Of a DNA stretch of 64,000 bases, positions 16,408 to 43,636 are shown piece by piece. The translations under genes were made by a program, and so were the position numbers. Below the pieces are notes generated by a model. It had not been told where the DNA came from and did not search any database. It worked only from the letters and a program-made list of their open reading frames with translations. Numbering within the stretch: position 1 is the stretch's first letter; each line of letters begins with the position of its first letter. Source of the DNA: Alphaproteobacteria bacterium (GTDB lineage Bacteria; Pseudomonadota; Alphaproteobacteria; SHVZ01); the NCBI GenBank assembly GCA_041906305.1, contig JAYRJL010000007.1:196042-260041 (forward strand). The letters are read 5' to 3'.

Positions 16408-16414
16408 GGAGAAT

Positions 16415-16457
16415 GACCGGCGCGCCGCCTCCCTGAAGGGAAGGTGGCGCGCCGGTC
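16415..16457 (+). promoter_or_regulatory. intercistronic stem-loop between the SBP and first permease gene
   Basis: Perfect 12-bp arms GACCGGCGCGCC (16415-16426) and GGCGCGCCGGTC (16446-16457) around a 19-nt loop that can pair further. 8 nt after the SBP stop and 10 nt before the permease ATG. Confidence 0.6.
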
Positions 16458-16467
16458 GCGTTTCTGC

Positions 16468-17454: not shown

Positions 17455-17458
17455 CCCG

Positions 17459-20332: not shown

Positions 20333-20659
20333 GTGATCCACCAGCTCCGCATCTACGAGATCTTCGAGCACAACAAGGCGGCCTTCCATGCGCGCTTCCG
20401 CGATCACGCGGCGCGGCTGATGAAGACGTACGGCTTCGAGATCAAGGCGATGTGGGAATGCCGGACCGAGGCGCACACCGAGTTCGTCTACGTCCTCGCC
20501 TGGCCGGACGAGGCGACGATGCGCGAGCGCTGGGCCGCCTTCATGGCGGACGAGGAGTGGAAGCGCATCAAGAAGGAAACGAGCGCCGTATCGGGGCCGA
20601 TGGTCGGCGAGATCGAGGAGCGCGTCCTTCATCCGACCGGCTACTCGCCGCCGTTCTGA
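20333..20659 (+). CDS. NIPSNAP family protein
   Basis: 108 aa, GTG start. The pattern IHQLRIYEI...FHARFRDHAARLMKTYGFEI...WPDEATMRERW fits the NIPSNAP/dimeric alpha-beta barrel family. Confidence 0.8.
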   Translation: MIHQLRIYEIFEHNKAAFHARFRDHAARLMKTYGFEIKAMWECRTEAHTEFVYVLAWPDEATMRERWAAFMADEEWKRIKKETSAVSGPMVGEIEERVLHPTGYSPPF

Positions 20660-20965: not shown

Positions 20966-22363
20966 TCAGTCGTCGGCAGCGATCGCGAGCGTGCGGCTCG
21001 CGGTCTTGCGTGCCGGCTTCGCTGCATTTTGCGACTTCACCGGTGCCAGGACCAGGTCCACGAGCGCGCGGGCATCGGCCTTCGGCCGGTCCATCGCCAT
21101 GGCCTCGGCGAGGATCTTCTCCGTGCGAGCCTTGCCGAGCACGACCTCGGTGGTGAGGCGGTACTTGGCGACTATGCCGTCGGCGCCGAGCGGCCGCTCG
21201 GGATCGCCGAGCGCTTCGGTCGGCTCCGATTTCAGCACGCGTCCGTCCTTGGTGGTCAGCGTCACGCGCGCGATCCGGCGGGCCGGAAACTCGGCGGTCA
21301 ACTTCAGATCCTCGGTCAGGTCGATGCCGCGCGAGAGCTTCAGCACGCGCGGATCGGTCAGGCCCTTGCCGTCGACCTCGCGGGCGGTGACCTTGCCATG
21401 GACGATCGCCACGGCGACCGGGAAGGGGAGGCTGTACTGCGCCTCCTCGGTGGTCTTCGGCGCGCGGGTCGCGAGACGGACCGCGTTGTGGAAGGTCTCG
21501 ACCTTGATCTTGGCGATGTCCGCGCCCTTTACGCCGTGCTTCTTGAGCAGCCCGAGGCTGGCCGTGATCGGCGGCTGGGCCCAGCGGCAGACCGGATAGG
21601 GCTTGAAGTACATCTCCATGATCCGCCAGCGCTTGCCGAGGTCGCGCCAGAGATCGGCGACGTCGTCGCCCTCCCAGACCAGCGCCGGCGCGCCGGTGAA
21701 CCCGGCCTTGGCCAGCAGTGCCGCGCTGACGCCGGCCATGGCGCCCCAGCCGGAGCCGTCCTTCACCATGGTCGGGAAATCGATGCAGCGCATCATCTGA
21801 CTGCGGGGACCGTGATACTCGGCGATGCCGAGCGCCTCGCGGGTGAGAGCCGGGGAGAGTTTCATCCAGCGCGCCATGACCGCGGCGGCGCCGAGCGAGT
21901 TCCACGATCCGGAGGTGTGATAGTCCTTCGCCGTCCGGTGGGTGGCGATCCCGGCGCGGATCGCGATCTCGTAGCCGATGATCAGGCTCACCAGGAACTC
22001 GCGGCCGGAGATCTTCTTCTGAGGGTCGCAGAGGGCAAGCAGGGTCGGCAGGATCGCGACGCCGGCATGGCCCTTGGTCAGCACATGGCCGTCATGGGAG
22101 TCGAAGGCGTCGATGGTGATGCCGCCGGCCATGGCGGCGCCGGCCGGGCCGACCTTGCGGCCGTCCAGCATCAGGCGGACGGCGTTCTTGCCCGCCCCGA
22201 AGGTCTCGACCGCGTGGTCGCGGATGATCCGCGACATGGCCGTCTCGCTGCCGGCCGCCGCCGCGCCGATGAGGTCCACGAGGCAGAGCTTCGCCTGCTC
22301 GACCACCTTCGCCGGAAGGTCGTCGAACTTGAGCTTGTGGATGAAGTCCATCGGCGCGGGCAT
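20966..22363 (-). CDS. MmgE/PrpD family protein
   Basis: 465 aa. PrpD-family layout: N-terminal FIHKLKFDDLPAKVVEQAKLCLVDLIG, plus HAGVAILPTLLA and YFKPYPVCRWAQ. Confidence 0.88.
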   Translation of the reverse strand: MPAPMDFIHKLKFDDLPAKVVEQAKLCLVDLIGAAAAGSETAMSRIIRDHAVETFGAGKNAVRLMLDGRKVGPAGAAMAGGITIDAFDSHDGHVLTKGHAGVAILPTLLALCDPQKKISGREFLVSLIIGYEIAIRAGIATHRTAKDYHTSGSWNSLGAAAVMARWMKLSPALTREALGIAEYHGPRSQMMRCIDFPTMVKDGSGWGAMAGVSAALLAKAGFTGAPALVWEGDDVADLWRDLGKRWRIMEMYFKPYPVCRWAQPPITASLGLLKKHGVKGADIAKIKVETFHNAVRLATRAPKTTEEAQYSLPFPVAVAIVHGKVTAREVDGKGLTDPRVLKLSRGIDLTEDLKLTAEFPARRIARVTLTTKDGRVLKSEPTEALGDPERPLGADGIVAKYRLTTEVVLGKARTEKILAEAMAMDRPKADARALVDLVLAPVKSQNAAKPARKTASRTLAIAADD

Positions 22364-22367
22364 CGGG

Positions 22368-23714
22368 TCAGCTCCAGGGGAACGGGCTGTTGGAGACCGG
22401 GTGAAGCTTGCCCTCGGGGAAGCGGGAGATCCGGAACGGCTCGAGCAGTCGGCTCTTGGTGCCGCTGACGATCTCGCCGGCTGCGAGCTTGCCGACCGCG
22501 ATCATCTTATAGCCGTGGTTGGAGTCGGCGAGGATGTAGACGTTATCCCGGAAGACATCGAACACCGGGAAGCTGTCGGGGGTGAAGCATCCGAGGCCGC
22601 CCGAGGGCTCGTGCTTCCATTTGTGCGCCTGGCCGGAATAGCGCTTCTGGCAGAAGGCGAGCGCCGAGGTGAACATGTGCGCGAAGTTCTGGTCGACGAT
22701 GAATTCAGGCGAATCAGGGCCATAGGGATCGATCTTCACCTCGTCTACCGGCGTCTCGACCTTGTACGGCATGGCGCCGCCCTGGATGCCGTTGAAGTTG
22801 AAGTCGGGCTTGTAATAGATGCCCCAGAGCTTGTCGGTGATGAGGGAGCCGTCCTCGTCCGAGTGGAGCGGCGCGTCGGTATCGACGTGCATGACCGGGC
22901 CCATCTTGCCGTCGTTCATGAGGCCGTATTTGGGGTCGACGCCGAGGGTCCCTTCCTCCAGGCACCAGTAGGTCCACATGCCGACGCCTTTGTGGGTCTT
23001 GCCGTCGCGGCCCTTGATGTCGACAGTCTTCGGCAACTCCAGCATCCGCCAGACTTGGTTGATCCAGGGGCCGACACCGACCACCACGAAGTCGCACTCG
23101 ATCGTGCCGCGGTCAGTCTCGACCGCCGAGACCGCCTTCGAGTTCGAGGCGAACTTGAAGCCGGTGACCTTGGTCGGGGCGACGATCTGGACGCCCTTGG
23201 ACTCCGCCTTCTTGGCGAGCCCGTACATGGAGGCCCGGTTGTTCGCGTAGCCGCCCTTCTTCTCGTGCAGGACGGAGGTGATGCCCTTGGCCTGCCAGTC
23301 GTCGAACAGGCCCTTCATATACTTGGTGCAGTCGGCCTCGCCTTCAATGAAAACAGAGTCGTAGCCGATGTCTTTCTGCTGCCGGGCGATCTGCCCGACA
23401 TTCTCATGCATCACTTCAGGAGAGATCTGCATGTAGCCGACCGGGTGGTAGGAGAAGGCCTTCGGGTCCGACTCCCAGACCGACACGCATTCGGCCATCA
23501 GCTCGCGCATTGCCGGCTGGAAGTAGTTGTTGCGGATCACCCCGCAGGCGATGCCCGAGGCGCCGGCGGCGATGCCGACCTTGTCGAGGATGACGATGTC
23601 CTTGCCAGATCCCTTGCCCTTGGCTTCGAGCTCGCAGGCGAGGTGGTAGGCGGTCGATAGACCGTGAACGCCGGCTCCGATGACGACGTACTTGGCTTTG
23701 GCGGGAAGGGACAT
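22368..23714 (-). CDS. FAD-dependent oxidoreductase (DAO family, sarcosine-oxidase-beta/opine-oxidase-like)
   Basis: 448 aa. Dinucleotide fold KYVVIGAGVHGLSTAYHLA. GAGGAA SD upstream. 4-nt gap to the downstream PrpD-like gene. Confidence 0.88.
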   Translation of the reverse strand: MSLPAKAKYVVIGAGVHGLSTAYHLACELEAKGKGSGKDIVILDKVGIAAGASGIACGVIRNNYFQPAMRELMAECVSVWESDPKAFSYHPVGYMQISPEVMHENVGQIARQQKDIGYDSVFIEGEADCTKYMKGLFDDWQAKGITSVLHEKKGGYANNRASMYGLAKKAESKGVQIVAPTKVTGFKFASNSKAVSAVETDRGTIECDFVVVGVGPWINQVWRMLELPKTVDIKGRDGKTHKGVGMWTYWCLEEGTLGVDPKYGLMNDGKMGPVMHVDTDAPLHSDEDGSLITDKLWGIYYKPDFNFNGIQGGAMPYKVETPVDEVKIDPYGPDSPEFIVDQNFAHMFTSALAFCQKRYSGQAHKWKHEPSGGLGCFTPDSFPVFDVFRDNVYILADSNHGYKMIAVGKLAAGEIVSGTKSRLLEPFRISRFPEGKLHPVSNSPFPWS

Positions 23715-23792
23715 CTCATTCCTCTGGTAAGCGGGGAGATCATCTCACGTCGCGGACGGGGTCCGTACCTGCCGCAAAACGACCGGCATCGG

Positions 23793-25466
23793 TCAGAAGG
23801 CGGCGACGCCGCCGGAGCGCGCGTCGCTGGCGGGGACCAGTCCATCGGCCGTCCGCCACACCGCCGAGGGGCGGCCGAAGCTGGTCGGCAGGCCGACGCC
23901 GTCGACCAGCCGGACCCGATGGCCGAGGGCCGTCAGGCGATCGATCACGGCTTGGCCGGTGCGGCTGTCGACCTCGAGATCGTCGCCCTCCGTGTGAATG
24001 CGCGGAAGGTCGATAGATTGTTGAGGATCAATATGATGATCGAGATAATTAATAGTTAAATTTAGAATTGCAGAGGGGATGCGATAGCCTCCCGAGCCCG
24101 CGATCCCGCCGATCGACCGGCCACTTTCGCGGAAGATCGCGACCGGGGCGGCGTAGAGCGGCATGCGTCCTGGCCCGACCGAATTGGCCTGGCCTGGGCG
24201 TGGGTCGAACCACTGCATCGCATTGCCGAGGAAGACCCCGGTGCCGGGGATCATGACCAGCGAGCCGAAGGCGCTGCCGAGGCTGGTGATCAGGCTCGCC
24301 ATGTTGCCGTCGCCGTCGGCGCAGACGATCTGGGTCGTGCCCTCGAAGGGCGGCGGCGGGACGGACGGGGTCGACCCCTGGTGAGGCCACGGGTTGCCCG
24401 GCTCGACCTTGGTCCTCGCCTTGTCGGTCCGGATCAGGGCGGCCTGCGCCGCGGCGAACGCCTTGCTGGCAAGACCCTCGAGCGGCGCCTTCAGGTGCCT
24501 GGGGTCGGCGGCATGGGCGAAGTTGTCGGCGAAGGACTGGGCGAGCGCCTCGGCGACCAGGTGCCGGACCTCGCCCCCGTGCGGGTCGAGGGCGCCCAGG
24601 TCGAACCGCTCCAGGATGTTGAGCGCCTCGACATAGATCAGGTCGCCGCAGGTGACGTAGTCGCGGCCGCGGTAGTCGTACCAGGGCTGGAGGAAGGTGT
24701 CCGGCCTGTAGCCGGCGAGGTCCTCGGCGGTCAGTAGGCCGCCGGCCTCCTTCATCTCGCGGTCGATCGCCTGAGCGAGCGGGCCGCCATAGAAGGCGGC
24801 GGCACCCTTCTCGGCGATGGTCTCCAGGGTCCGGGCCATGTCCGAGAAGTCAAAGCGGTGGAAGGCGCCGCCGGCATTGGCCGGTCGGGGCGGGGCGTCG
24901 TCGGGGAGCAGCCATTTCGCCGCCTCGGCATACTGCCTGATCTCGACCGTTCGGCCGGCGACCGAGGCGGTCAGCTTCGGGTCGGCGACGACGCCGGCGC
25001 GGGCGAGGTCGATCGCCGGGCCGACCAGGACCTTCCACGGCAGCCGTGCGAAAAGCCGGTGTGCCTCCCAGAGGCCAGCGATGGTGCCGGGGATGCCGAC
25101 CGAGAGATGGCCCGTCGTGTTGATCGCGCCCTCGACGCCGCCCCAGCCGGCGTTCCGCCACTTGGCCAGCGCCTTTGTGTACATCTCCGGCGTCGCCGCC
25201 TTGGGCGCGCGGATGAAGTGGTCGATGCCGACCGCCTGGTTCGTCTTCGAGAGATAGACCGACATGCGGCCGTGGCCGCCGATGCCGCACATCTGCGGCT
25301 CGACGACGAAGGAGGCGAAGGCGCCGGCGATCGCCGCGTCGACCGCATTGCCGCCCTGGCGGATGATCTCGACGCCGACATCTGCCGCGGTCTGGTGACC
25401 GCAAGCGACAGCGCCACGTGCGCCGCTGATCGGCGTGCGACCGAGGATGACCGAGCCTGGACGCAT
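23793..25466 (-). CDS. gamma-glutamyltranspeptidase-family Ntn hydrolase, leaderless (GGT-2)
   Basis: Track ORF 23793..26999 trimmed to ATG 25464-25466 (MRPGSVILGR...), which shares 1 nt with the GGT-3 stop; 557 aa. Blocks QGGNAVDAAIAGAF, Thr nucleophile context FEGTTQIVCADGDGN, and oxyanion SGGYRI. Confidence 0.9.
   Translation of the reverse strand: MRPGSVILGRTPISGARGAVACGHQTAADVGVEIIRQGGNAVDAAIAGAFASFVVEPQMCGIGGHGRMSVYLSKTNQAVGIDHFIRAPKAATPEMYTKALAKWRNAGWGGVEGAINTTGHLSVGIPGTIAGLWEAHRLFARLPWKVLVGPAIDLARAGVVADPKLTASVAGRTVEIRQYAEAAKWLLPDDAPPRPANAGGAFHRFDFSDMARTLETIAEKGAAAFYGGPLAQAIDREMKEAGGLLTAEDLAGYRPDTFLQPWYDYRGRDYVTCGDLIYVEALNILERFDLGALDPHGGEVRHLVAEALAQSFADNFAHAADPRHLKAPLEGLASKAFAAAQAALIRTDKARTKVEPGNPWPHQGSTPSVPPPPFEGTTQIVCADGDGNMASLITSLGSAFGSLVMIPGTGVFLGNAMQWFDPRPGQANSVGPGRMPLYAAPVAIFRESGRSIGGIAGSGGYRIPSAILNLTINYLDHHIDPQQSIDLPRIHTEGDDLEVDSRTGQAVIDRLTALGHRVRLVDGVGLPTSFGRPSAVWRTADGLVPASDARSGGVAAF
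24015..24074 (-). other. AT-rich rare-codon island inside the GGT-2 coding sequence
   Basis: 20 consecutive in-frame codons, 19 ending in A/T. 16 G/C of 60 nt by hand count. The reading frame is intact and the peptide aligns with its paralogues. Confidence 0.85.
24021..24049 (+). promoter_or_regulatory. sigma70-like promoter motif, antisense to GGT-2
   Basis: TTGAGG (24021-24026), 17-nt spacer, GATAAT (24044-24049). Motif match only; no downstream plus-strand gene is supported. Confidence 0.3.
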
Positions 25467-27175
25467 CAGCACGCGGCCGCCGCGGAAGCCCAGGCGGGGC
25501 CCGAGCCGGCGCGCATCGAGCCGTCCTTGGCGACGGTGATCGCATTCACGCGGCCGAAGGCGTTCAGGCCTGGGGACTCGGTCTGCGTTACGACCTTGTG
25601 GCCCATCTTGGCGAGGCCATCGCGGACCTCGGCCGGGATGCGGCCGTCGATATAGGTCTCCTGGCCCTGGCAGTGGATGCGGGGCGCGTCGACCGCCGCC
25701 TGGGGGCCCATGCCGAACTCGGTCGCGTAGAGGAAGGCGTGCAGCACGCCGGTGGTGATGCGGTAGCCGCCCGAGCCGCAGCCGGCGAAGACGGCGCGGC
25801 CGTCCTTCTCGGCGACCAGCGAGGGGGCTGCGAAGATCGGCATCTTGCCCGGCCTGATGCAGTTCGCCTGGTCGGGGCGCGGGTCGAAGTTCTGCATCGA
25901 GTTGTTCAGGATCACGCCGGTGCCCGGGACGATCATCAGCGAGCCGAAGCCGCTGGTGAGGCTGGTGATGAGAGCGCAGACGTTGCCGTCCGCATCGGCC
26001 GAGGCCATCTGGCTGGTGCCGGCAAGCTTGGCGATGCCGGGCTCGTTGGCGATCCGCGTCGGCCGCTCGGCCGAGTTGTCGTAAGGCCAGGGATCGGCGG
26101 CGGCGACGGGGCGGGGGAGCGCGCGGTCCATGCGAAGCTGCTGGGCGCGCATCTTCCCGAACTCGGGGCTGGCAAGGCCTTCGACCGGCGCCCGCTCGTA
26201 ATCCGGATCGCCGTAATGCGTCATGCTGTCGATGAAGCCGCAGGCGAGCGCTTCGGCGACCAGATGGCGGAAGGCGAGACTGTCCTTGCCCATGCCCTTG
26301 AGGTCGAAGCACTCGAGGATGTTGAGTGTCTCGTAGGTCACCTGGTCGTAGCAGGTGTTGGTGTTCATGCCGCGATAGCGCGTCGGCTTCTCTTCGAGGA
26401 TGCGGGTCTTGTAGGCGCCGAGGTCGGCGGCAGTCAGGATGCCGCCCAGGCCCGTGACATGGCGCTCGATCGCTTCCGCGACCGGGCCCTCGTAGAAACC
26501 GGCCGCACCTTTTTCGGCGATGCGCCGGATCGTCTTCGCGAGATCCTTGCCGTCGAGGCGGTCGCCGCCGCCGGCGAGCTGGCCCGCGGCCTTCGGCGGC
26601 AGGTTGTTCCGCAGCAGCCACTCGGCTGTCGTCGGCAGTGCCTGGATCGCGGCCAGCCGCTCCGAGATCGGCAGCAGCAGCTGCCAGGTGACCTCGATGC
26701 CGGCCTCGGCCTCGGCGATCGCCGGCTCCAGCACCTTGGCGAGCGGAAGCTTCCCGAACATGCGGTGCGCGTCGCAGAGGCCGGCGACCGCGCCTGGTAC
26801 CGCCGGCGCCAGCGGACCCTGCTCGGCCTTCATGCCGACCGTGTAGGGAAAGCCGTAGTACTTGTTCGGCTTGGTGCGATCGATCTCGAACATGTCCGGC
26901 CGCGCCGCACCCGGTGCCCGCACATAGTGATCGAAGGTGACGAACCGCTTCTCGCGGCCGAGCCAGACGGCGAGGTGGCCGTAGCCGCCGATGCCGCATG
27001 ACGCCGGCTCGACGACGAAGCCCACGAACGCCGCCGCGACCACCGCGTCGATCGCATTGCCGCCGGCCTCGATCATCGCGATGCCGGCCGCGGCCTCGGC
27101 CGGATGCCCTCCGGTGACGACGCCGCGCGCACCCGCGACCTCGGTGCGGGTCGCGACCATCTGGCTCTGGATCAT
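25466..27175 (-). CDS. gamma-glutamyltranspeptidase-family Ntn hydrolase, leaderless (GGT-3)
   Basis: Track ORF 25466..28900 trimmed to ATG 27173-27175 (MIQSQMVATRT...), ATGA overlap with the ATPase stop; 569 aa. Blocks AGGNAIDAVVAAAF, LAGTSQMASADADGN and GSGGYRI. Confidence 0.9.
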   Translation of the reverse strand: MIQSQMVATRTEVAGARGVVTGGHPAEAAAGIAMIEAGGNAIDAVVAAAFVGFVVEPASCGIGGYGHLAVWLGREKRFVTFDHYVRAPGAARPDMFEIDRTKPNKYYGFPYTVGMKAEQGPLAPAVPGAVAGLCDAHRMFGKLPLAKVLEPAIAEAEAGIEVTWQLLLPISERLAAIQALPTTAEWLLRNNLPPKAAGQLAGGGDRLDGKDLAKTIRRIAEKGAAGFYEGPVAEAIERHVTGLGGILTAADLGAYKTRILEEKPTRYRGMNTNTCYDQVTYETLNILECFDLKGMGKDSLAFRHLVAEALACGFIDSMTHYGDPDYERAPVEGLASPEFGKMRAQQLRMDRALPRPVAAADPWPYDNSAERPTRIANEPGIAKLAGTSQMASADADGNVCALITSLTSGFGSLMIVPGTGVILNNSMQNFDPRPDQANCIRPGKMPIFAAPSLVAEKDGRAVFAGCGSGGYRITTGVLHAFLYATEFGMGPQAAVDAPRIHCQGQETYIDGRIPAEVRDGLAKMGHKVVTQTESPGLNAFGRVNAITVAKDGSMRAGSGPAWASAAAAC

Positions 27176-29217
27176 GTCAGCTCTTTCTCTTGAACGCGGG
27201 CGAGATCGTTCATCGGGATGTGGCAGGCCATGCGGTGGCCGGCCGGCGTCACCTGCTCGGGTGGACGCGTGGTCTCGCAGATCGATCCCTCCTTCCGCGG
27301 GCAGCGGGTGTGGAAGGGGCAACCCTTCGGCGGATCGAGCGGGCTCGGCGTCTCGCCCTCGACCGGCGCGTCGAGTCCCTGGTCGTTGTCGAGCTTCGGC
27401 TGCGCCTTCAGCAGCAGCTCGGTGTAGGGATGGTGCGGGGCCGAGAACACCTGGTTCGTGGTGCCCGCTTCCATCACCTGGCCGAGATACATGACGACGA
27501 CGGTGTCGGCGACGTAGCGCACCAGCGCCAGGTCGTGGCTGATCAGGATCAGCGTCGTCCCGTGCGCGCGCTGGATCTCCATCAGCAGCTGCGTGACCGC
27601 GGCGCGGACCGAGACGTCGAGCGCCGAGACCGGCTCGTCGGCAACGACGATGTCGGGCCGTCCGACGAAGGCGCGGGCGATGGCGATCCGCTGCTTCTGG
27701 CCGCCCGAAAGGTGGCGCGGCTTGCGCTCGGCGATGCCCGGCGGCAGGCGGATCTCGGCGAATAGGTCGCGCACGCGGTCCGCGCGTTCCTTGCGGCCAA
27801 GATTGAGAAGGCGCTTGGCGACACGCGCGATCTGGCGGCCGACCTTGTAGCTGGGATTCAGCGTCTCGTCCGGGTTCTGGAACACCATCTGCAGCGCGCG
27901 CAGCTGATCGCGCGAGCGGTCGATGACGGAGATCCGTCCGAGATCGGACCCTGCGACCTCGACCTTGCCGCCCGTCGAGCGTTCGAGCCCCGTCAGGATG
28001 CGGGCGAAGGTCGACTTGCCGCAGCCGGACTCGCCGACGATGGCCAGCGTGCGGCCGGACTCGGCATCGAAGGTCAGGTGATCGTTGGCGCGCACCTTCA
28101 GCGGCTCGGCGAAGGGCAGGAGCCCGCGCAGGCCCGGCGGCGTCAGGTTGTAGTCCTTGCTGAGATTGTCGACCGCGACCGAGATGCCTTCTGCGAAAGC
28201 GGCGGGTTCTCCTGCGACGCCGGCGATCAATCCAGGCTCGATCTCGTCGGCTCGGACGCAGCGGACCAGGGAGTCCTTGCCGTCGTCGATCAGTTGCGGA
28301 TGCGCGATATCGCAGCGTCCCGGCACGGCATAGACGCAGCGCGGCATGAAGAAGCAGCCGGCCGGACGCTCCCATGGCGCCGGGATCTGGCCGGGGATCG
28401 GCGCCAGCGGCCGGGCGATCTTGTCGGCGCCGGACTCCGGCAGGCAAGCGATCAGGCCGCGCGTATAGGGATGGATGGGATCGGTGAGGATGCGGCGGGT
28501 CGGGCCTTCCTCGACGATCTCGCCGGCATACATGACGGCGATCCGCTCGCAGACGCGCGAGATCAGCGCCAAGTTGTGCGAGATGTAGAGCAGCGAGGTG
28601 CCGAAGCGCCGGCTGATCTCGGCGATCAGCTTGACCACGCTCGCCTCGACGGTGACGTCGAGGCCGGTCGTCGGCTCGTCGAGCAGGAGCAGGGCCGGGT
28701 TGGCGAGCAGCGCCATCGCGATCACGACGCGCTGCTGCTGGCCGCCGGAGATTTCGTGAGGGAAGGCGCGGAACACGCGGTCGGGATCGGGGATGCGGAC
28801 CTCGGCCAGCATCGTCTTGGCGCGGCGCTCGGCCTCGGGTCCGACCACGTCCTCGTGGAAGCGCAGCACCTCGGTCAGCTGCGCGCCGATGGTAAGGCAC
28901 GGATTGAGCGCCGACATCGCCTCCTGGAACACCATGGCGATGCGCTTGCCACGGACGTGGCGCAGCTCGGCCGGCGACATCGTTGCCATGTCCCGGCCCT
29001 CGAACAGCATGCGGCCGCCGACGATCTGTCCACGGCCGGCGAGCCAGCGCATGACGCCGAAGGCGATCGTCGACTTGCCGCAGCCGGACTCGCCGACGAG
29101 GCCCAGGCTCTCTCCCGGATTCAGCCTGAGCGACACGTCGACCACCGCCGGCACCGCGCCGCGCCGCGTGCGGTAGGAGATCGAGAGCTTGTCGAGCTCG
29201 AGGAGGGGCGCGGTCAT
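27172..29217 (-). CDS. fused double-NBD ABC ATPase (DppD-DppF type)
   Basis: 681 aa. Two Walker A sites (GESGCGKS twice), ISGGQQQR and LSGGQKQR signatures, and a Cys-rich oligopeptide-ATPase C-terminal tail. Confidence 0.93.
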   Translation of the reverse strand: MTAPLLELDKLSISYRTRRGAVPAVVDVSLRLNPGESLGLVGESGCGKSTIAFGVMRWLAGRGQIVGGRMLFEGRDMATMSPAELRHVRGKRIAMVFQEAMSALNPCLTIGAQLTEVLRFHEDVVGPEAERRAKTMLAEVRIPDPDRVFRAFPHEISGGQQQRVVIAMALLANPALLLLDEPTTGLDVTVEASVVKLIAEISRRFGTSLLYISHNLALISRVCERIAVMYAGEIVEEGPTRRILTDPIHPYTRGLIACLPESGADKIARPLAPIPGQIPAPWERPAGCFFMPRCVYAVPGRCDIAHPQLIDDGKDSLVRCVRADEIEPGLIAGVAGEPAAFAEGISVAVDNLSKDYNLTPPGLRGLLPFAEPLKVRANDHLTFDAESGRTLAIVGESGCGKSTFARILTGLERSTGGKVEVAGSDLGRISVIDRSRDQLRALQMVFQNPDETLNPSYKVGRQIARVAKRLLNLGRKERADRVRDLFAEIRLPPGIAERKPRHLSGGQKQRIAIARAFVGRPDIVVADEPVSALDVSVRAAVTQLLMEIQRAHGTTLILISHDLALVRYVADTVVVMYLGQVMEAGTTNQVFSAPHHPYTELLLKAQPKLDNDQGLDAPVEGETPSPLDPPKGCPFHTRCPRKEGSICETTRPPEQVTPAGHRMACHIPMNDLARVQEKELT

Positions 29218-29218
29218 G

Positions 29219-30079
29219 TCAGTCGGCCAGCGACAGCTCGCGGAGGCCGTCGGCGATCAGGTTGAACGCCAGCACCAGCGAGGAGACCGCGAGGCACGGG
29301 AACACCGCCATGTGCGGAAACACCAGCGCGAAGTGGCGGGACTCGTTGATCATGCTGCCCCAGTCGGGCGTCGGCGGGGGGATGCCGAGGCCGAGGAAGC
29401 CCAGCGTGCCGATCGTGATCGTGACGTAGCCGAGGCGCAGGCAGGCATCGACGATCAGCGGCCCGCGCGCGTTCGGCAGGATCTCGACGAACAGGATGTA
29501 GAAGGTGGACTCGCCGCGCATCTGCGCCGCCGAGACGTAGGCGCGGCTGCGGAGGTCGAGCACGACGCCGCGCACCAGCCGCATGATCCCGGGGCTGCTC
29601 GCCAGCGTGACCGCGATCAGGATGTTGATCCCGGACGCGCCGAATTTCTGGATGATCACGATGTAGACGACGATGACGGGGAAGGCCAGGACCAGGTCGG
29701 CGAAGCGCGACAGGAGCTCATCGACCCAGCCGCCCTTGTAGCCCGCGATCAGGCCGAGGGTTACGCCGACCGAGTAGGCGCAGAGCGTCGCCAGCGGTGC
29801 GTAGGTCAGGACCGTGCGGCCGCCATATATCAGGCGCGAAAGCACGTCGCGCCCGAGATGATCGGCGCCGAACAGCATCAGGCGGCCGTCGGGCGCGCGG
29901 TCTCCCGGCAGCGCCATCGGCACCAGGTTCTGGTTCGGACCGAAGGGCGCGATCAGCGGCGCGAGGATCGCGACCAGGATCCAGAAGAAGAGGATCGATA
30001 GGCCGGCTATGAGGATCGGGCTCTCGCGCAGGAGCGAGAGCGGCGTCACGCTCTTCTGGGTCGCGGTCGCGTCGGTCAT
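29219..30079 (-). CDS. ABC transporter permease (DppC/OppC-like)
   Basis: Track ORF 29219..30811 trimmed to ATG 30077-30079 (MTDATATQKS...), ATGA overlap with the upstream permease stop; 286 aa. Blocks FGADHLGRDVLSRL and YVSAAQMRGES. Confidence 0.9.
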   Translation of the reverse strand: MTDATATQKSVTPLSLLRESPILIAGLSILFFWILVAILAPLIAPFGPNQNLVPMALPGDRAPDGRLMLFGADHLGRDVLSRLIYGGRTVLTYAPLATLCAYSVGVTLGLIAGYKGGWVDELLSRFADLVLAFPVIVVYIVIIQKFGASGINILIAVTLASSPGIMRLVRGVVLDLRSRAYVSAAQMRGESTFYILFVEILPNARGPLIVDACLRLGYVTITIGTLGFLGLGIPPPTPDWGSMINESRHFALVFPHMAVFPCLAVSSLVLAFNLIADGLRELSLAD

Positions 30080-31011
30080 CGCGCCACCCGGATGCGCGGG
30101 TTGAGGAGGCCATAGCCGATGTCGGCGAGCGTCTGGGTTCCGACCGCGATCAGCACCGAGATCGCGGTGCAGGCCTGCAGCAGGAACAGGTCGTGCGCCA
30201 GCGAGGCTTCGAGGATCAGCGAGCCGAATCCCTTGTAGGCGAAGAAGAACTCGACGACCACGACGCCGCCGATCAGCCAGTTGATCTGCAGCATGATCAC
30301 GGTGAAGGGTGGGATCAGCGCGTTGCGGAGCGCGTGGCGGAGGATGATCCACCAGTCGGGCAGACCCTTCAGCGTCGCGGTGCGGATATAGGCGGTCTGC
30401 ATCACGTCGGCCATCGAGGCCCGGGTGATGCGCGTGAGGTAGCCGAAGTCGTAGAGCAGCAGCACCGCGACCGGCATCACCAGCTCCTTCCAGCGGAAGC
30501 CGTCGATCATGCTGCTGGTGCCGGGCAGGAGCCCGAGGGTGAACACGAAGATCGCCGCCAGCAGCACGGCGCTGGCGAAGGGCGGGATCGAGGTGGTGAG
30601 GATCGAGGCGAAGGAGATGGCGCGGTCGATCGGCGAACCCTCCTTCATGCCCGCGATCACGCCGAGTCCGAGCGAGAGCGGGATCAGGATCGCGAAGAAG
30701 CAGGCGGCGAGGATCCCGGATGCCGCGAGCCGGGGCCCGAGCACGGTCGAGACCGGCGCGTTGTAGAGGCGCGAGTTGCCGAATTCGCCGGTGATGCACC
30801 GCCGCGCCCAATCGAGGAAGCGGACATGCATCGGCTCGAGATAGCCGTTGGCCAGGAGCCAGAGATCGCGCTGCTCGCGGGTGGAGTATTGGCCGAGCGC
30901 GTCGGCGGCGACCGTCTCCGGCGAGATCTCGAAGATCAGGAAAAGCACGATCGAGACCAGCGCGATCGAGACTGCCGAATTGAAAAGGCGTTGGACGATC
31001 AACCGCGCCAT
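30076..31011 (-). CDS. ABC transporter permease (DppB/OppB-like)
   Basis: 311 aa. Blocks MARLIVQRLFNSAVS and YIRTATLKGLPDWWIILRHALRNAL. Confidence 0.9.
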   Translation of the reverse strand: MARLIVQRLFNSAVSIALVSIVLFLIFEISPETVAADALGQYSTREQRDLWLLANGYLEPMHVRFLDWARRCITGEFGNSRLYNAPVSTVLGPRLAASGILAACFFAILIPLSLGLGVIAGMKEGSPIDRAISFASILTTSIPPFASAVLLAAIFVFTLGLLPGTSSMIDGFRWKELVMPVAVLLLYDFGYLTRITRASMADVMQTAYIRTATLKGLPDWWIILRHALRNALIPPFTVIMLQINWLIGGVVVVEFFFAYKGFGSLILEASLAHDLFLLQACTAISVLIAVGTQTLADIGYGLLNPRIRVAR

Positions 31012-31319
31012 CGACTGCGTCGCGCCCCCTGAAGCATCGCGATCGGAAAAGCCGGCGCGATGTTACCTAAGGAGGATGCCTCGAGGCAGCCAAATGCGAC
31101 GAGCCGAGGTCGAAATCCACCTCATGATGCAATGCTTCCTCGAACGCACCGTGCGTGTTTCGTCAGGCGGGAACACGTTCGAGCGTGTGTCGCTTCCGGG
31201 ATACGAACAGTCGCCTTTGGTCGACTTGCCGACCGGGCGCAAGGTGACGCTTTCGGATCAGAAAGGAGGGCGGCCGGAAGTCGGCCGCTCCCGGCTTCTG
31301 CGCCTTGGGGAGGTGCTGC

Positions 31320-33005
31320 ATGTCCCGTGACGATCGCGAACATTCCTACGTTCCGAAGCTGAAGACGCTGTTTGCCGACGGCAAGTGCGACCGGCGCGAG
31401 TTCCTGCGCACCGCGACGCTGCTGGGTGTCAGCGCCTCGGCCGCCTATGCCTTCGCCGGCAAGATCGACAAGGGCGCCGTCGTGCCCGAGGCGCTGGCGC
31501 AAGGGGCGCCGCGCAAGGGCGGCTCGCTGCGTCTTTGCGCGCGGGTCCGCGAGATCCAGCATCTGCACCGGACCGGCAACGTGCCGGCGAGCAACCTCGC
31601 CCGCCAGGTGGTCGAGTACCTCGCCAACACCGGGCCGGACAACATCACCCGCCCGATGCTGCTGGAGAGCTGGCAGCCGAGCGAAGACCTCAAGACCTGG
31701 ACGCTCAAGATCCGCAAGGACGTGAAGTGGCGGAAAGGCGGCACGCTCAATGCCGACCAGGTGATCTGGAACATCAAGAGCGTGCTCGATCCCAAGACCG
31801 GCTCATCGGTCCTGGGGCTGATGAAGGCCTATATGACGGTCGATGAGCCGACCGGCGAGATGGACGCCAACGGCAAGCCGAAGACGACGACCAGGCTGTG
31901 GGACTCGAAGGCGATCGAGAAGGTCGACGACCTGACCGTCCGCCTCAACCTGCGCATGCCGCAGCTGGCGGTGCCGGAGCACTTCTTCCACTACCCGTTC
32001 TTCATCGCCCACCCGGACGAGGACGGGAAGTTCGGCGTCGGCATGAACGGCACCGGGCCGTTCGAGCTGGCCGAATACGACATCACCAAGCGCGCCGTGC
32101 TGAAGGCGCGGAGCGACTACTGGGGCAAGGGGCCGTATCTGAACGAGGTGATCTTCGTCGATCTCGGCGACGATCCGTCGGCCGAGGTCGCGGCGATGGC
32201 CTCCAAGCAGGTGCACTCGATCGTCGCCACCGGCCCGGCGCAGCTGCCGATCCTGAAGCGGCTGCCGGATCTCGACTTCTATTCGGTCGGCACCGGCGCC
32301 ACCGTTCATGCGCGTGCGTATCCGGTGAAGCCGTTCGACGACAAGCGCGTGATGCAGGCGCTTCGCTACGCGACCGACAACGACAAGGTGGCGGAGGTCA
32401 CCTTCGGCGAGATCGGCTCGCGCGCCGAGCACCACCACGTGGCTCCGGTGCATCCGGAATACGCGCCGCTGCCGCCGTTCAAGAAGGACGTCGCCAAGGC
32501 GAAGAAGCTGCTCGCCGACGCAGGCTATCCGAACGGTCTGGAGATCCCGATCCCGCTCACCGTGTCCAACAACTGGACCAAGGACGTGGCGACGGTGATG
32601 ATCCAGCAGTGGGAGGAGATCGGGGTCAAGACCAAGCTCGAGGTCCTGCCCTCGCCGGAGTGGAACAAGGTCTGGAATACCGCGCCCTTCGCGTGCGGCG
32701 ACTGGTCCCACCGCCCGCTCGGTGTCATGTGCCTGGCGCTCGCCTATCGAACCGGCGTTCCCTGGAACGAGTCGGGCTTCTCGAATGCCGAGTTCGACAA
32801 GATCCTCGACCTCGCCGAGGCGACCGCCGACGTCGAGAAGCGCCGCGAGCATGTGAAGAAGCTGGAAGAAATCCTCCAGAACGACGGTCCGCTGGTGCAG
32901 CCGCTGTTCCGCAAGGTCTTCACCTACTGCGACAAGAAGATGAAGGGCTTCAGGATGCACCCGACCCAGTACATCGAGTGCAACGAGATCTGGCTCGACG
33001 CCTAG
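31320..33005 (+). CDS. ABC transporter substrate-binding protein, family 5, Tat-type signal
   Basis: Trimmed to ATG 31320 (MSRDDREHSYV...), with GGGAGG about 6 nt upstream; 561 aa. Twin-arginine motif DRREFLRTATLLGVSASAAYAFA. Divergent from the permease operon. Confidence 0.88.
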   Translation: MSRDDREHSYVPKLKTLFADGKCDRREFLRTATLLGVSASAAYAFAGKIDKGAVVPEALAQGAPRKGGSLRLCARVREIQHLHRTGNVPASNLARQVVEYLANTGPDNITRPMLLESWQPSEDLKTWTLKIRKDVKWRKGGTLNADQVIWNIKSVLDPKTGSSVLGLMKAYMTVDEPTGEMDANGKPKTTTRLWDSKAIEKVDDLTVRLNLRMPQLAVPEHFFHYPFFIAHPDEDGKFGVGMNGTGPFELAEYDITKRAVLKARSDYWGKGPYLNEVIFVDLGDDPSAEVAAMASKQVHSIVATGPAQLPILKRLPDLDFYSVGTGATVHARAYPVKPFDDKRVMQALRYATDNDKVAEVTFGEIGSRAEHHHVAPVHPEYAPLPPFKKDVAKAKKLLADAGYPNGLEIPIPLTVSNNWTKDVATVMIQQWEEIGVKTKLEVLPSPEWNKVWNTAPFACGDWSHRPLGVMCLALAYRTGVPWNESGFSNAEFDKILDLAEATADVEKRREHVKKLEEILQNDGPLVQPLFRKVFTYCDKKMKGFRMHPTQYIECNEIWLDA

Positions 33006-33025
33006 GCGCTCAGTCGTGGTCGACG

Positions 33026-33062
33026 CGGCGTGGAGGTCCCGGATCTCCGCGCCGTTCCTTTT
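33026..33062 (+). terminator. Rho-independent terminator candidate after the Tat-SBP gene
   Basis: Stem GGCGTGGAG (33027-33035) and CTCCGCGCC (33045-33053) with one G-U and a 9-nt loop, followed by GTTCCTTTT. A second small hairpin CCGAC-N6-GTCGG plus TTTT follows. Confidence 0.5.
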
Positions 33063-33136
33063 CCGACATAGAAGTCGGTTTTCAAACTCTTCGCCGCGTG
33101 CTCTCCTGTGTCGCATTCTGGCGGCTGGGAGGGGTC

Positions 33137-34117
33137 TTGAGCGCGGGCCGAAGCGAAGCCGACGTCTACACGGTCGGTTTCTTCCTCATCCCCGACTTCT
33201 CGATGATGGCTTTCGCCGCGGCGCTCGAGCCACTGCGATCGGCAAATCGGGTCAAGCAATCCACGCTTTACAGCTGGAAGCTGTTCTCGCGCGACGGCGA
33301 ACGGGTGACGGCCAGCAACGGCATCGGCTTCGACGTGCAGGGCGGCCTCGACGAGCAGCCCGGCGTCGACATCATGCTGGTCTGCGCCGGCTACAGTCCT
33401 GAAGGCTACGACGACAAGAAGGTGTTCGCGTGGCTCCGCCGGATCTCGCGGTCGGGGGCCAAGATCGGCGCGCTCTCGACCGGCGCCTATATCCTCGGCA
33501 AGGCGGGCCTCCTCGACGGCAAGCACTGCACCGTCCACTGGGAGCACGTGGCGTCGCTGTCGGAGAAGTTTCCGGAGGCGATCACCACCTCCGGCATCTA
33601 TGTGATCGACGGCAATGTGCTGACCTGCTCGGGCGGCATCGCGGCACTCGACATGATGCTGAGCGTGATCGCGAGCCAGCACGGCCGTGCCGTCGCCAAC
33701 GCGGTCGCCGAGAACTTCATCCACCCGCGCATCCGCGAGCATGACGACCGCCAGCGGATGGAACTGCAGACGCGCCTCGGCATCTCGCATCCGAGGCTTC
33801 TTACCACGATCATCCGGATGGAGAACGCGATCGAGGAGCCGCTCGACATGAACGAGCTGGCGGAGTCGGTCGATCTCAGCCCACGCCAGCTGGAACGCCT
33901 GTTCAGGCGATACCTCAAGACCACACCGCACGGCTACTACGTGAAGCTCAGGCTCGAGCGGGGCAGGCGGTTGCTCACCCAGACCAGCGCTTCCATCCTC
34001 GATGTGGCGATGTCCTGCGGCTTCGTCTCGGCCTCGCATTTCACCAAGTGCTACCGTCGCATCTTCGGTCGCACCCCGACGGACGAGAGACGCTCGGTGC
34101 TGGCAGGCGCCGCCTAG
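33137..34117 (+). CDS. GlxA-family (DJ-1/PfpI + AraC HTH) transcriptional regulator
   Basis: Track ORF 31898..34117 trimmed to TTG 33137 (GGGAGG 4 nt upstream). There is no ATG or GTG before the conserved VGFFLIPDFSMMAF block. 326 aa; the C-terminal AraC HTH reads CGFVSASHFTKCYRRIFGRTP. Confidence 0.82.
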   Translation: MSAGRSEADVYTVGFFLIPDFSMMAFAAALEPLRSANRVKQSTLYSWKLFSRDGERVTASNGIGFDVQGGLDEQPGVDIMLVCAGYSPEGYDDKKVFAWLRRISRSGAKIGALSTGAYILGKAGLLDGKHCTVHWEHVASLSEKFPEAITTSGIYVIDGNVLTCSGGIAALDMMLSVIASQHGRAVANAVAENFIHPRIREHDDRQRMELQTRLGISHPRLLTTIIRMENAIEEPLDMNELAESVDLSPRQLERLFRRYLKTTPHGYYVKLRLERGRRLLTQTSASILDVAMSCGFVSASHFTKCYRRIFGRTPTDERRSVLAGAA

Positions 34118-35262
34118 GCCTCGATCAGACCGTCGGTCGCGGCCAGCGCCTTCAGGTGGTGGTCGGCAGGGCCGAACAGGGTGTCGATCATCGTCATGCG
34201 CTTGAAGTAATGACCGACCTTGTACTCGTCGGTCATGCCGATGCCGCCGTGGAGCTGGATCGCCTGCTGGCCGACGAACTTGCCGGAGCGGCCGATCTGC
34301 ACCTTGGTCGCGGCCATCGCCTTCCGGCGCTCCGCGGCGTCGGGCTCGGCCGCCATCATCGTCGCGTAATAGGCCATGCTCCGCGCCTGCTCGAGCGCGA
34401 TCAGCATGTCGACCGAGCGATGCTGGAGTACCTGGAAGGCGCCGATGGTGATGCCGAACTGCTTTCGGGTCTTGAGATACTCGACCGTCGCCTCGTGCAT
34501 CACCGACATGACGCCGATGGACTCGGCGGCGAGTGCCGCGATCGCTTCGTCGACCACCCGCTCGATCGCGGCGTAGGCCTTGCCGGGTGTGCCTAGCACG
34601 GCATCGGCATCGACGCGAACGCCGGTGAAGGCGATCTCGGCGGCGCGCAGCCCATCGACCGTCGGATAGCCGCGCCGCACGACGCCCGAGGCGTTCGCGT
34701 CGACCAGGAGCAGGACGATCCCGTCGCGGTCGCGGCGCTGGCCCGAGATGCGCGCGCTGACGATCAGCTTGTCGGCGGAGTCGCCATGCAGGACGACGCC
34801 TTTCTCGCCGTCCAGCGCCCAACCGTCGCCGGTCTTCTTCGCCGTCGTCGCCACGTCGGCAAGCTCGTAGCGCGCCTGGCGTTCGCCATGGGCGAAGGCG
34901 AAGGTGAGGCTGCCGTCGGCGATCCTCGGCACGAGATCGGACTTCTGCGCGTCGCTGCCGGCATGGCGGATGAGGCCGCCGGCGAGCACGACGGTCGCGA
35001 GATAGGGCTCCAGCGCCAGCGCGCGGCCGAGCGCCTCCATGACCACCATGGTCTCGACCGGCCCGGCGCCGAGGCCGCCATGCCTCTCGTCGAAGGAAAG
35101 GCCGAGGATTCCGAGCTCGGCATACTTGCCCCAGAGCGCGCGGCTCCAGCCGTCGGCCTCCTTGCGGTTGGCCTTTCGCTGCTCGAACGAGGAATGGTCG
35201 GCGAGCAGTCGCTCGACGCTGTCCTTGAGGAGCTGCTGCTCCTCCGAAAGATCGAAGTCCAC
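34114..35262 (-). CDS. acyl-CoA dehydrogenase family protein (PimD-like small partner)
   Basis: 382 aa, GTG start with GAGG upstream. ACAD blocks QFGITIGAFQVLQHR and QLHGGIGMTDEY. Confidence 0.88.
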   Translation of the reverse strand: MDFDLSEEQQLLKDSVERLLADHSSFEQRKANRKEADGWSRALWGKYAELGILGLSFDERHGGLGAGPVETMVVMEALGRALALEPYLATVVLAGGLIRHAGSDAQKSDLVPRIADGSLTFAFAHGERQARYELADVATTAKKTGDGWALDGEKGVVLHGDSADKLIVSARISGQRRDRDGIVLLLVDANASGVVRRGYPTVDGLRAAEIAFTGVRVDADAVLGTPGKAYAAIERVVDEAIAALAAESIGVMSVMHEATVEYLKTRKQFGITIGAFQVLQHRSVDMLIALEQARSMAYYATMMAAEPDAAERRKAMAATKVQIGRSGKFVGQQAIQLHGGIGMTDEYKVGHYFKRMTMIDTLFGPADHHLKALAATDGLIEA

Positions 35263-35268
35263 GTTACC

Positions 35269-36468: not shown

Positions 36469-36471
36469 GGA

Positions 36472-40190: not shown

Positions 40191-40216
40191 GCCCGGCGTC
40201 TCCCTGCCCTTAGTTC

Positions 40217-40240
40217 CGCATTGCGAAATTGCGTTTCGCA
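40217..40240. promoter_or_regulatory. overlapping palindromes (candidate IclR operator) in the fadB-like / iclR divergent region
   Basis: CGCA-T-TGCG (40217-40225) overlaps TGCGAAA-TTGCG-TTTCGCA (40222-40240; perfect 7-bp arms). Coordinates cross-checked against track ORF 39715..40281. Confidence 0.45.
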
Positions 40241-40243
40241 GAT

Positions 40244-40272
40244 TTGACGTGGATCGTAGGGTGGAGTGTACT
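40244..40272 (+). promoter_or_regulatory. sigma70-like promoter candidate for the iclR-liv operon
   Basis: TTGACG (40244-40249), 17-nt spacer, TGTACT (40267-40272). Immediately downstream of the palindromes and about 45 nt upstream of the iclR ATG. Confidence 0.3.
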
Positions 40273-40316
40273 CCGCTGTAAATCCCTCCGAACGAGAGGG
40301 AGACGACAGGGCAGGA

Positions 40317-42740: not shown

Positions 42741-42753
42741 GGGGAAGGGAGGA

Positions 42754-43632: not shown

Positions 43633-43636
43633 CGTC

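Follow-up and report, generated by a model that had tools for sequence, protein, structure and literature searches.

What does a bacterium take up through a peptide-type ABC (ATP-binding cassette) importer whose genes run straight into two genes of gamma-glutamyltranspeptidase (GGT)-type hydrolases that carry no signal peptide? This question is raised by a gene cluster at positions 20966-34117 of a 64,000-nt stretch of the alphaproteobacterial contig JAYRJL010000007.1, the whole of which is called the window below. The cluster is real; it is conserved but uncharacterised, and joins an importer in one operon with cytoplasmic hydrolases that represent two unstudied subfamilies within the GGT superfamily of N-terminal nucleophile (Ntn) hydrolases, accompanied by a flavoprotein of the DAO family, a protein of the MmgE/PrpD fold and a divergently transcribed regulator. 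An earlier note on this DNA had proposed that no characterised pathway has this composition, and none was found in the full-text literature and databases; the full-text literature on GGT with partner genes and on the N-methylglutamate pathway likewise yielded no paper describing the cluster. A published survey of GGT subfamilies, which treats 47 selected, mostly characterised GGT-like proteins of more than 21,000 counted in Pfam, does not cover this clade (PMC4568574).

The two hydrolases, GGT-2 and GGT-3, are 41.4% identical over 553 amino acids (aa), which is less than the half identity estimated earlier. Both fall under the 357.85-bit cut-off of the GGT equivalog model TIGR00066 (306 and 303 bits, respectively), and neither reaches the cut-off of 990 of PRK09615 (215 and 180). 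The closest solved relatives are the Bacillus licheniformis GGT (244 and 213 bits), the Escherichia coli GGT and a Bacillus halodurans “cephalosporin acylase.” The GGT fold of GGT-2 is not in doubt, because its AlphaFold model (predicted local distance difference test score, pLDDT, 84; predicted TM-score, pTM, 0.90) superposes on the structures 4y23 and 2nlz with TM-scores of 0.85 and 0.86.

The active sites were compared in an alignment of the window GGT proteins with orthologues from 13 loci and the E. coli enzyme, whose numbering is used here. The nucleophile Thr391 and the oxyanion residues Gly483-Gly484 are invariant in both paralogue families, so the earlier reading that both proteins keep these elements was correct, with neither lost nor misaligned; the position of Thr409 is occupied by Ser in both families. 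GGT-2 and GGT-3 are thus apparently catalytically competent. In E. coli GGT, the residues R114, N411, Q430, D433, S462 and S463 bind the gamma-glutamyl moiety by its alpha-amino and alpha-carboxylate groups. All six are swapped for aromatic or small residues, being, in this order, F, G, A, W, Y and A in the GGT-2 type and Y, T, S, N, F and A in the GGT-3 type, with S485 replaced by Y in both. The position of the lid-loop residue Tyr444 is a gap in both proteins, the lid loop being absent. Inside each paralogue family these pocket signatures hardly vary even as identity drops from 95% to 47%, and the canonical signature was found in none of the approximately 115 full-length homologues among the best 120. 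Since every gamma-glutamyl ligand is replaced, the alignment indicates that GGT-2 and GGT-3 are two amidohydrolases with hydrophobic, aromatic acyl pockets and not gamma-glutamyl enzymes. The gamma-glutamyl specificity suggested in the earlier note is contradicted by these losses and by the TIGR00066 scores, and the compound imported is probably not glutathione-like.

The duplication is old and retained, as previously supposed, with the two genes adjacent in every ABC-importer locus examined at GGT-2 identities of 49-93%. At the same time, a GGT2-like gene stands without an adjoining GGT3-like gene in locus L027 and in the context of protein P0042, and a GGT3-like gene stands alone in the context of P0058; these unpaired genes argue against an obligatory GGT-2/GGT-3 heteromer. 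Two further arrangements were noted. In an alphaproteobacterial metagenome-assembled genome (L025, 4891-11710), an Amidohydro_3 gene is followed by three tandem GGT-like genes, two GGT3-like (55-56% identity) and one GGT2-like (49%), with no transporter nearby. The window itself contains a third leaderless GGT-like gene, GGT-1 (5751-7265, minus strand), 32% identical to GGT-2, which carries S, L, G, W, A and N at the six ligand positions and lacks the canonical gamma-glutamyl ligands. Its locus (5751-10523, minus strand) also encodes a short-chain dehydrogenase (7273-8091), an SBP_bac_5 protein (8240-9805) and a GntR regulator (9792-10523), which makes it a second locus in the same style as the main cluster.

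The location of the hydrolases ties them to uptake. The conserved core aligns at its beginning with mature GGT, and the 16-17 residues ahead of it in GGT-2 and GGT-3 are too few for a signal peptide; all of their orthologues beside ABC importers are likewise signal-free. GGT2-like proteins of 595-612 aa encoded beside TonB-dependent receptors have an N-terminal twin-arginine translocation (Tat) signal (MDRRxFLxxS...), as does the GGT3-like protein beside the TonB receptor in L020. The claim that neither window protein has a signal peptide is supported both by the position of the N-terminus and by this comparison. As judged from these sequences, the location of the hydrolases follows the uptake route; the enzymes sit where the substrate arrives and are therefore functionally tied to its uptake. 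Neither in the ABC-importer nor in the TonB setting do the DAO and PrpD-like proteins carry a signal, which suggests that they act on products rather than on the intact conjugate. The Tat-bearing GGT2-like and GGT3-like proteins belong to metagenome-assembled genomes of gammaproteobacterial type (L019, 1578-11903; L020, 7213-17970; L027, 1162-11839), where a TonB-dependent receptor, a TPR-sulfotransferase and a PrpD-like gene lie alongside; the sulfotransferase is a puzzling member of a seemingly catabolic locus.

The features of the cluster are collected in Table 1. The open reading frame (ORF) map and direct reading of the junctions give seven minus-strand ORFs and not the eight counted previously, as both ABC domains of the ATPase are encoded by a single fused gene; all other coordinates and junctions given before match both the map and the sequence. 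The two permease genes share ATGA at 30076-30079, a single nucleotide (position 29218) separates the stop of the second permease gene from the ATPase start at 29217, the ATPase and GGT-3 genes share ATGA at 27172-27175, and GGT-3 and GGT-2 overlap by 1 nt in TGATG at 25466. A gap of 4 nt lies between the DAO and PrpD-like genes. Such overlaps and 1-4-nt spacers suggest translational coupling from PermB to GGT-2, and the minus-strand genes presumably form one transcript. The 78-nt gap between GGT-2 and the DAO gene, previously regarded as a possible site of an internal promoter, holds only a ribosome-binding site: no promoter- or terminator-like match was detected on the minus strand of 23715-23792, and the predicted fold of the gap does not differ from that of shuffled sequences (z = -0.1). 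The genes of the comparison loci (L numbers) were called by GC3-minus-GC2 scoring (GC content at third minus second codon positions), and independent gene callers gave the same gene lengths in orthologous contigs. Every Pfam family that had been predicted, G_glu_transpept, DAO, MmgE_PrpD and SBP_bac_5 among them, was found by Pfam search.

Table 1 Features of the cluster at 20966-34117 of the window
Feature	Position	Strand	Evidence or remark
MmgE/PrpD-fold protein, 465 aa	20966..22363	-	Pfam MmgE_PrpD_N 151 bits, MmgE_PrpD_C 123 bits
FAD (flavin adenine dinucleotide)-dependent amine oxidoreductase, “DAO-447” family, 448 aa	22368..23714	-	Pfam DAO 111 bits
Spacer before DAO gene	23715..23792	-	78 nt; ribosome-binding site AGAGGAA
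GGT-2, leaderless GGT-superfamily Ntn hydrolase, 557 aa	23793..25466	-	Pfam G_glu_transpept 366 bits
GGT-3, leaderless GGT-superfamily Ntn hydrolase, 569 aa	25466..27175	-	Pfam G_glu_transpept 351 bits
Fused double ATPase, Dpp/Opp type, 681 aa	27172..29217	-	Pfam ABC_tran (two) and oligo_HPY (two)
PermC, permease, OppC/DppC type, 286 aa	29219..30079	-	BPD_transp_1, OppC_N
PermB, permease, OppB/DppB type, 311 aa	30076..31011	-	BPD_transp_1, BPD_transp_1_N
Divergent control region	31012..31319		Conserved blocks in alignment of six orthologous loci
Tat-signal family-5 solute-binding protein, 561 aa	31320..33005	+	SBP_bac_5 227 bits
Terminator-like hairpin after solute-binding protein gene	33025..33055	+	14-pair stem, T-rich tail; consensus match only
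GATase1-like/AraC (GlxA/GbdR-family) regulator, 326 aa	33137..34117	+	DJ-1_PfpI, HTH_18

The importer has the composition of the PepT (Dpp/Opp/Nik) type, with a family-5 solute-binding protein (SBP), two BPD_transp_1 permeases and an oligo_HPY ATPase. The ATPase scores 556 bits with the dipeptide ABC ATP-binding subfamily model NF008453 (cut-off 408), and the PermC orthologues were also called at 286 aa. The SBP, which carries the twin-arginine motif RREFLRTATLLGVSASAAYAFA, containing RREFL (read by eye), is 66-90% identical across all ABC-type loci. The equivalog models of the Gsi glutathione importer are far from being reached (score/cut-off: GsiA 430/1077, GsiB 83/594, GsiC 136/463 and GsiD 199/484). 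The central proposal of the earlier note, a peptide-type ABC importer coupled to two leaderless GGT-superfamily Ntn hydrolases, agrees with both domain content and synteny.

The same gene order was sought in other genomes, as the earlier note had advised, and the full nine-gene arrangement recurs in L001 and L007-L011 (GGT-2 identity 78-93%). A motif-based scan of one genome for each of 185,579 species gave at least 15 loci with a GGT-2 relative, all from metagenome-assembled genomes, the closest being 93% identical; the number is a lower bound because the scan needs exact motifs. The hosts are Rhodospirillaceae and other Alphaproteobacteria, Acetobacteraceae, two genomes of gammaproteobacterial type and one of Methylomirabilota. 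Loci L009 and L011 come from Lake Tanganyika samples. Within the protein collection, the window GGT-3 occurs only as its own cluster, P0241. Among 72,556 plasmids, tblastn detected no relative of GGT-2 or GGT-3 above 37% identity and no DAO match at 1e-30, and megablast with the whole locus returned only short ATPase or PrpD fragments; for the hydrolases, no usable annotated orthologue from a cultured strain was obtained.

The core of SBP, permeases, ATPase, GGT-3 and GGT-2 persists in L007-L015, L017 and L028, with GGT-2 identity falling from 93% to 49%. DAO and PrpD-like genes had been taken as fixed parts of the operon, but they are replaced in L012 and L014 by Amidohydro_1 and MR_MLE genes and in L015 by an M24 peptidase gene; in L013, a PrpD-like gene lies upstream and an OoxA-like gene downstream. 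By gene content, the importer with GGT-3 and GGT-2 is the conserved core, and the DAO and PrpD-like genes are accessory. One or both of these accessory genes stand beside GGT-like genes also in distant lineages with other transporters: in L013; in L019/L020 (GGT3-like 73%, PrpD-like 52%, GGT2-like 47%, TonB receptor); in L026, which is Patulibacter defluvii; in L027 (DAO 67% identical, GGT2-like, TonB receptor, PrpD-like); in L028; and in the P0042 context (major facilitator superfamily transporter, GGT2-like, PrpD-like, TonB receptor, GATase1-AraC regulator, MTTB). As a separate observation, the 73% relative L012 (identical with L004; 11751-19171) has the SBP and the GGT pair beside genes for a dimethylglycine-dehydrogenase-like protein, an MTTB methyltransferase, a creatinase-like M24 peptidase, an enoyl-CoA hydratase and a CaiB-type CoA transferase, a further link to methylated amines.

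No protein of the cluster is more conserved than the DAO (92-98% identity among close loci), which belongs to a very uniform family of 445-448 aa, here called DAO-447, with many members at 72-80% identity; of 8000 scored candidates below 1e-10, the best 120 span 72-95%. Its AlphaFold model is poor (pLDDT 55.8) because the underlying alignment was low in diversity. Orthology with SoxB or MgdA was rejected, since the protein scores 75 bits with the soxB subfamily model TIGR01373 (cut-off 529) and shares only about 22-24% identity with the SoxB-like MgdA of L029; SoxA-, SoxD- and SoxG-type partner genes are absent from the cluster. In Zavarzinia sp. CC-PAN008, a DAO-447 gene stands first in an operon continued by Gln-synt_C, GATase_6/7, GXGXG and Glu_synthase genes, that is, gmaS-mgsABC; a GntR gene and a set of four sox/mgd-like genes are transcribed divergently from it. 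A metagenome sample of 80 DAO-447 loci (L031-L110) included 69 with enough downstream sequence, and in 43 of these gmaS lies within 400 bp downstream of the DAO-447 gene. In individual loci, such as L029 (10001-16270), L031 (2482-8700) and L049 (7998-14200), DAO-447 heads gmaS-mgsA-mgsB-mgsC; a divergent GntR gene is usual there, and mgdABCD is mostly not nearby. The neighbours in other loci are GATase1-AraC regulators, or PrpD-like, CN_hydrolase, acyl-CoA dehydrogenase, CoA ligase, enoyl-CoA hydratase or MTTB genes. The window DAO is 66-77% identical to proteins encoded directly upstream of gmaS-mgsABC, and neighbour joining places the window clade as sister to the Zavarzinia protein, the neighbourhood types being interspersed across the tree. 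Gene neighbourhood would therefore point to a conserved activity of DAO-447 on an N-methyl amino acid, with N-methylglutamate or sarcosine as the obvious candidates, and DAO-447 may be an unrecognised single-subunit dehydrogenase of N-methylglutamate, or of a related compound, in the methylamine pathway.

The PrpD-like protein leads to similar surroundings. Its assignment as a 2-methylcitrate dehydratase PrpD orthologue was rejected, its scores being 32, 23 and 20 bits where the equivalog models require 575, 950 and 458; the best PDB matches are the Bacillus subtilis IRG1 homologue 7bra (84 bits) and the iminodisuccinate (IDS) epimerase 2hp3 (62 bits). The true orthologues, uncharacterised proteins at 55-61% identity, are encoded in betaine-type catabolic operons of Paracoccus and Burkholderia, those at 55-58% on plasmid 1 of Paracoccus denitrificans PD1222 and in Burkholderia/Caballeronia. 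These operons comprise a betaine-type ABC transporter, a nitrilase-like C-N hydrolase, an acyl-CoA dehydrogenase, a CoA ligase and sometimes an enoyl-CoA hydratase; the Paracoccus operon adjoins genes for a GlxA-family regulator, a Rieske demethylase, purU and folD, and the Burkholderia operon a gene annotated gbdR. PrpD-like relatives and GATase1-AraC (GATR) regulators thus share a methylated-amine theme, sitting with betaine-type transporters, MTTB, Rieske demethylases and purU/folD. The PrpD-like operon (relatives at 53-58%) was observed in L024 (4801-14343, PD1222 plasmid 1), L022 (10455-20693, Burkholderia sp. SFA1) and L079 (862-10307), the last of which includes a DAO-447 gene as well; the operon is itself conserved and apparently uncharacterised.

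The SBP and the regulator, both on the plus strand, are divergent from the operon, as described before, with the twin-arginine motif and the DJ-1_PfpI and HTH_18 domains confirmed. The regulator also matches HTH_AraC and has the GATase1-AraC architecture of GbdR; scoring 378 bits with the GbdR model NF052371, under the cut-off of 480, it is a member of the GbdR family and not an orthologue. Its start is most likely TTG at 33137, because GGGAGG precedes this codon and the length then becomes 326 aa as in the orthologues, and the gene is kept beside the SBP gene in L001 and L007-L011. The conserved blocks of the control region include GAAAGCGTC, CAAAG-CGAC, GCGAC, GATTYCGAC, GTCGCATTTGGCTG and TTTCCGATCG. 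Within 31012-31319, the GbdR-like regulator may bind at GTCGCATTTGGCTG and at the repeated AAG(N)CGAC-like motifs, which are candidate operators. A sigma-54-like promoter at the GTCGCATTTGGCTG block was considered and rejected, its -12 element not being kept in L009-L011.

The flanks of the cluster are of other kinds. Past the regulator (34114-47155), a beta-oxidation-type operon on the minus strand encodes two acyl-CoA dehydrogenases (34114-36468), whose families were taken from the syntenic contig L023, together with an AMP-dependent ligase and a FadB-like enzyme. Genes for a Liv-type ABC transporter and for a thiolase follow on the plus strand. This flank has no conserved counterpart in L001 and is therefore probably independent of the cluster. 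Downstream of the PrpD-like gene lie a small NIPSNAP-domain gene (20333-20659) and, on the plus strand at approximately 14104-20319, what the annotation of syntenic L023 suggests is another Opp-type ABC transporter.

Several known systems share parts of this design. The E. coli iaaA-gsiABCD (ybiK-yliABCD) operon, which we take to be the closest architecture known, encodes a family-5 SBP, two permeases and an ATPase with two fused domains, and its cytoplasmic Ntn hydrolase is self-processing and splits unusual peptide bonds; the window has the same set of components. IaaA, however, is a single hydrolase of the Asparaginase_2 family in an operon without DAO, PrpD or GATR genes, whereas the window hydrolases are of the GGT family and paired, and the importer proteins are far under the Gsi cut-offs. 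With the canonical enzymes (E. coli Ggt and the B. licheniformis and B. subtilis GGTs), GGT-2 and GGT-3 share the fold (TM-score 0.79-0.85), the Thr nucleophile and the Gly-Gly oxyanion hole, but they lack the signal peptide, the lid loop and the gamma-glutamyl ligands, and are 26-28% identical in structural alignment. They resemble rather the poorly understood, non-canonical superfamily members 2nlz (B. halodurans, YwrD-like), 2i3o (Thermoplasma acidophilum), LmbA (6j3i) and HpxW (5hft), which have altered pockets and in some cases no signal. The best structural match, 2nlz (TM-score 0.86; root-mean-square deviation 2.6), also has Asn at the D433 position. Identity to these proteins is nevertheless only 20-28%, and the pocket signatures differ. 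Their functions include glutaryl-7-ACA hydrolysis, C-C cleavage in lincomycin biosynthesis and oxamate hydrolysis, none of which is implied by the context in the window, and to our knowledge none of them occurs as a conserved tandem pair linked to an importer.

Opine operons of the Agrobacterium type combine a binding-protein-dependent ABC importer, a DAO-family opine oxidase and a regulator, and some opine binding proteins are of family 5. The window likewise has an importer, a DAO-family flavoprotein and a dedicated regulator, and the opine binding proteins AccA and AgaA are weak PDB matches of its SBP. The window DAO, however, stands alone without an OoxA-type partner (an OoxA-like gene was seen only in L013) and belongs to a different, highly conserved family, and we know of no GGT-like hydrolase in opine operons. 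As for the N-methylglutamate clusters (gmaS, mgsABC, mgdABCD), the DAO is akin to the protein encoded upstream of gmaS-mgsABC, but the window contains neither gmaS nor mgs. The PrpD-like protein has, over its full length, the two Pfam domains of the MmgE/PrpD family, comprising 2-methylcitrate dehydratase, cis-aconitate decarboxylase (IRG1/CAD) and iminodisuccinate epimerase, yet matches the characterised members only with E-values of 1e-23 to 1e-16.

The interpretation given in the earlier note thus survives in part: the importer coupled to an anciently duplicated GGT-superfamily pair stands, and the gamma-glutamyl specificity and the fixed role of DAO and PrpD do not. The scheme that we favour, as plausible though short of probable, is the import and cytoplasmic hydrolysis of an amide conjugate other than a gamma-glutamyl one, after which an N-methyl or N-alkyl amino acid is oxidised. 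The locus would be a substrate-inducible catabolic one, in which the Tat-exported family-5 SBP and the Dpp/Opp-type importer would bring a small amide-linked conjugate into the cytoplasm. There, the self-processing Ntn amidohydrolases GGT-3 and GGT-2, with their aromatic or small acyl pockets, would cut it, probably at two different amide bonds or in two related substrates. The N-methyl or N-alkyl amino acid released would be oxidised in the cytoplasm by DAO-447, the PrpD-fold protein would isomerise, dehydrate or decarboxylate a dicarboxylate-type moiety, and the GbdR-family GATase1-AraC regulator would control the divergent promoters. In what sequence the steps follow, what the products are chemically and what the regulator does are inferences here. 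The substrate may be opine-like or N-acyl; among more definite compounds one might speculate on N-acetylglutaminylglutamine amide (NAGGN), gamma-glutamylmethylamide or theanine, citrate-amide siderophores, microcystin-type isopeptides, N-acylsarcosines and aminopolycarboxylates. A narrower form of the scheme, which we consider doubtful, is that GGT-2 and GGT-3, as two uncharacterised aromatic-pocket subfamilies, jointly act, one after the other or as a complex, as amidases on a natural conjugate with an N-methylated or quaternary-amine amino-acid moiety and so feed a new catabolic route into oxidation by DAO-447, itself an unrecognised single-subunit dehydrogenase of the N-methylglutamate/sarcosine type widespread in methylamine operons.

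Some observations weigh against the favoured scheme. The SBP has no close characterised relative, its best PDB match being 5u4o with only 125 bits, deposited under the generic name “ABC transporter substrate-binding protein”; the substrate of the DAO is deduced solely from gene neighbourhood; and all relatives of the cluster come from metagenome-assembled genomes. The absence of DAO and PrpD from L012, L014 and L015, where other enzymes take their place, means that the downstream chemistry may differ by lineage or have nothing to do with the hydrolases. Strictly, the loss of the ligands would also be compatible with a gamma-glutamyl substrate held in some other way.

This last point bears on the view that glutathione, gamma-glutamyl peptides or gamma-glutamyl amines are taken up and then broken down by two true gamma-glutamyl hydrolases. 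The strong G_glu_transpept scores, the intact nucleophile and oxyanion hole, the weak similarity of the ATPase and SBP to the Gsi models and the tie of the DAO family to gamma-glutamylmethylamide/N-methylglutamate operons would fit it, as would the precedent of E. coli PuuB, a DAO-family enzyme acting on a gamma-glutamyl amine. However, the replacement of all six ligands and the loss of the lid loop extend to both paralogues and all orthologues, and the window proteins score under the GGT equivalog cut-offs and far under those of GsiA, GsiB, GsiC and GsiD, so we regard this view as quite improbable. We expect just as little of salvage of D-amino-acid or unusually linked peptides (cell-wall peptides, cyanopeptides or N-acyl-D-amino acids), in which the GGT-like enzymes would cut blocked iso-peptide bonds, the PrpD-fold or MR_MLE protein would be the epimerase, and the DAO or the D-aminoacylase-like Amidohydro protein the enzyme for D-amino acids. 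Such a role would agree with the peptide type of the importer, with the lake origin of many host genomes, with IDS epimerase as a characterised PrpD-fold relative and with the seemingly parallel modules, DAO and PrpD in the window against Amidohydro_1/3 (470-503 aa) with MR_MLE in L012, L014 and L025 and the M24 peptidase in L015. The main neighbourhood of the DAO family is nevertheless that of methylamine and N-methylglutamate genes and not of D-amino-acid genes, and methylated amines are indicated by the regulator and by the PrpD-like relatives as well. It is somewhat less improbable, though still unlikely, that the cluster is a mosaic, with the importer and the GGT pair as one unit and the DAO, PrpD-like protein and regulator as a separate methylated-amine module placed downstream by chance in this lineage. 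The 78-nt gap falls exactly at the boundary of these modules, L012, L014 and L015 do without DAO and PrpD, and in L062, L065 and L079 DAO, PrpD-like and GATR genes occur together without a GGT-like gene. On the other hand, the gap has no promoter- or terminator-like site, the GATR gene lies on the importer side, adjoining the SBP gene, and DAO and/or PrpD-like genes recur beside GGT-like genes in the distant lineages listed above.

Genes of the GGT family are routinely annotated as glutathione hydrolases. The pair described here, like the wide clade around it that has so far come almost entirely from uncultured bacteria, is unable to bind gamma-glutamyl groups in the manner known from GGT, and these annotations are therefore probably wrong. 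If the substrate should turn out to be an ordinary peptide, the finding would reduce to this correction. The link to an importer, the location of the hydrolases according to the uptake route and the association with DAO-447 and a PrpD-fold protein otherwise offer a concrete way, open to testing, towards a new catabolic pathway for amide conjugates in Alphaproteobacteria of freshwater and soil, and the same observations may also pinpoint the missing N-methylglutamate-oxidising enzyme in many genomes.

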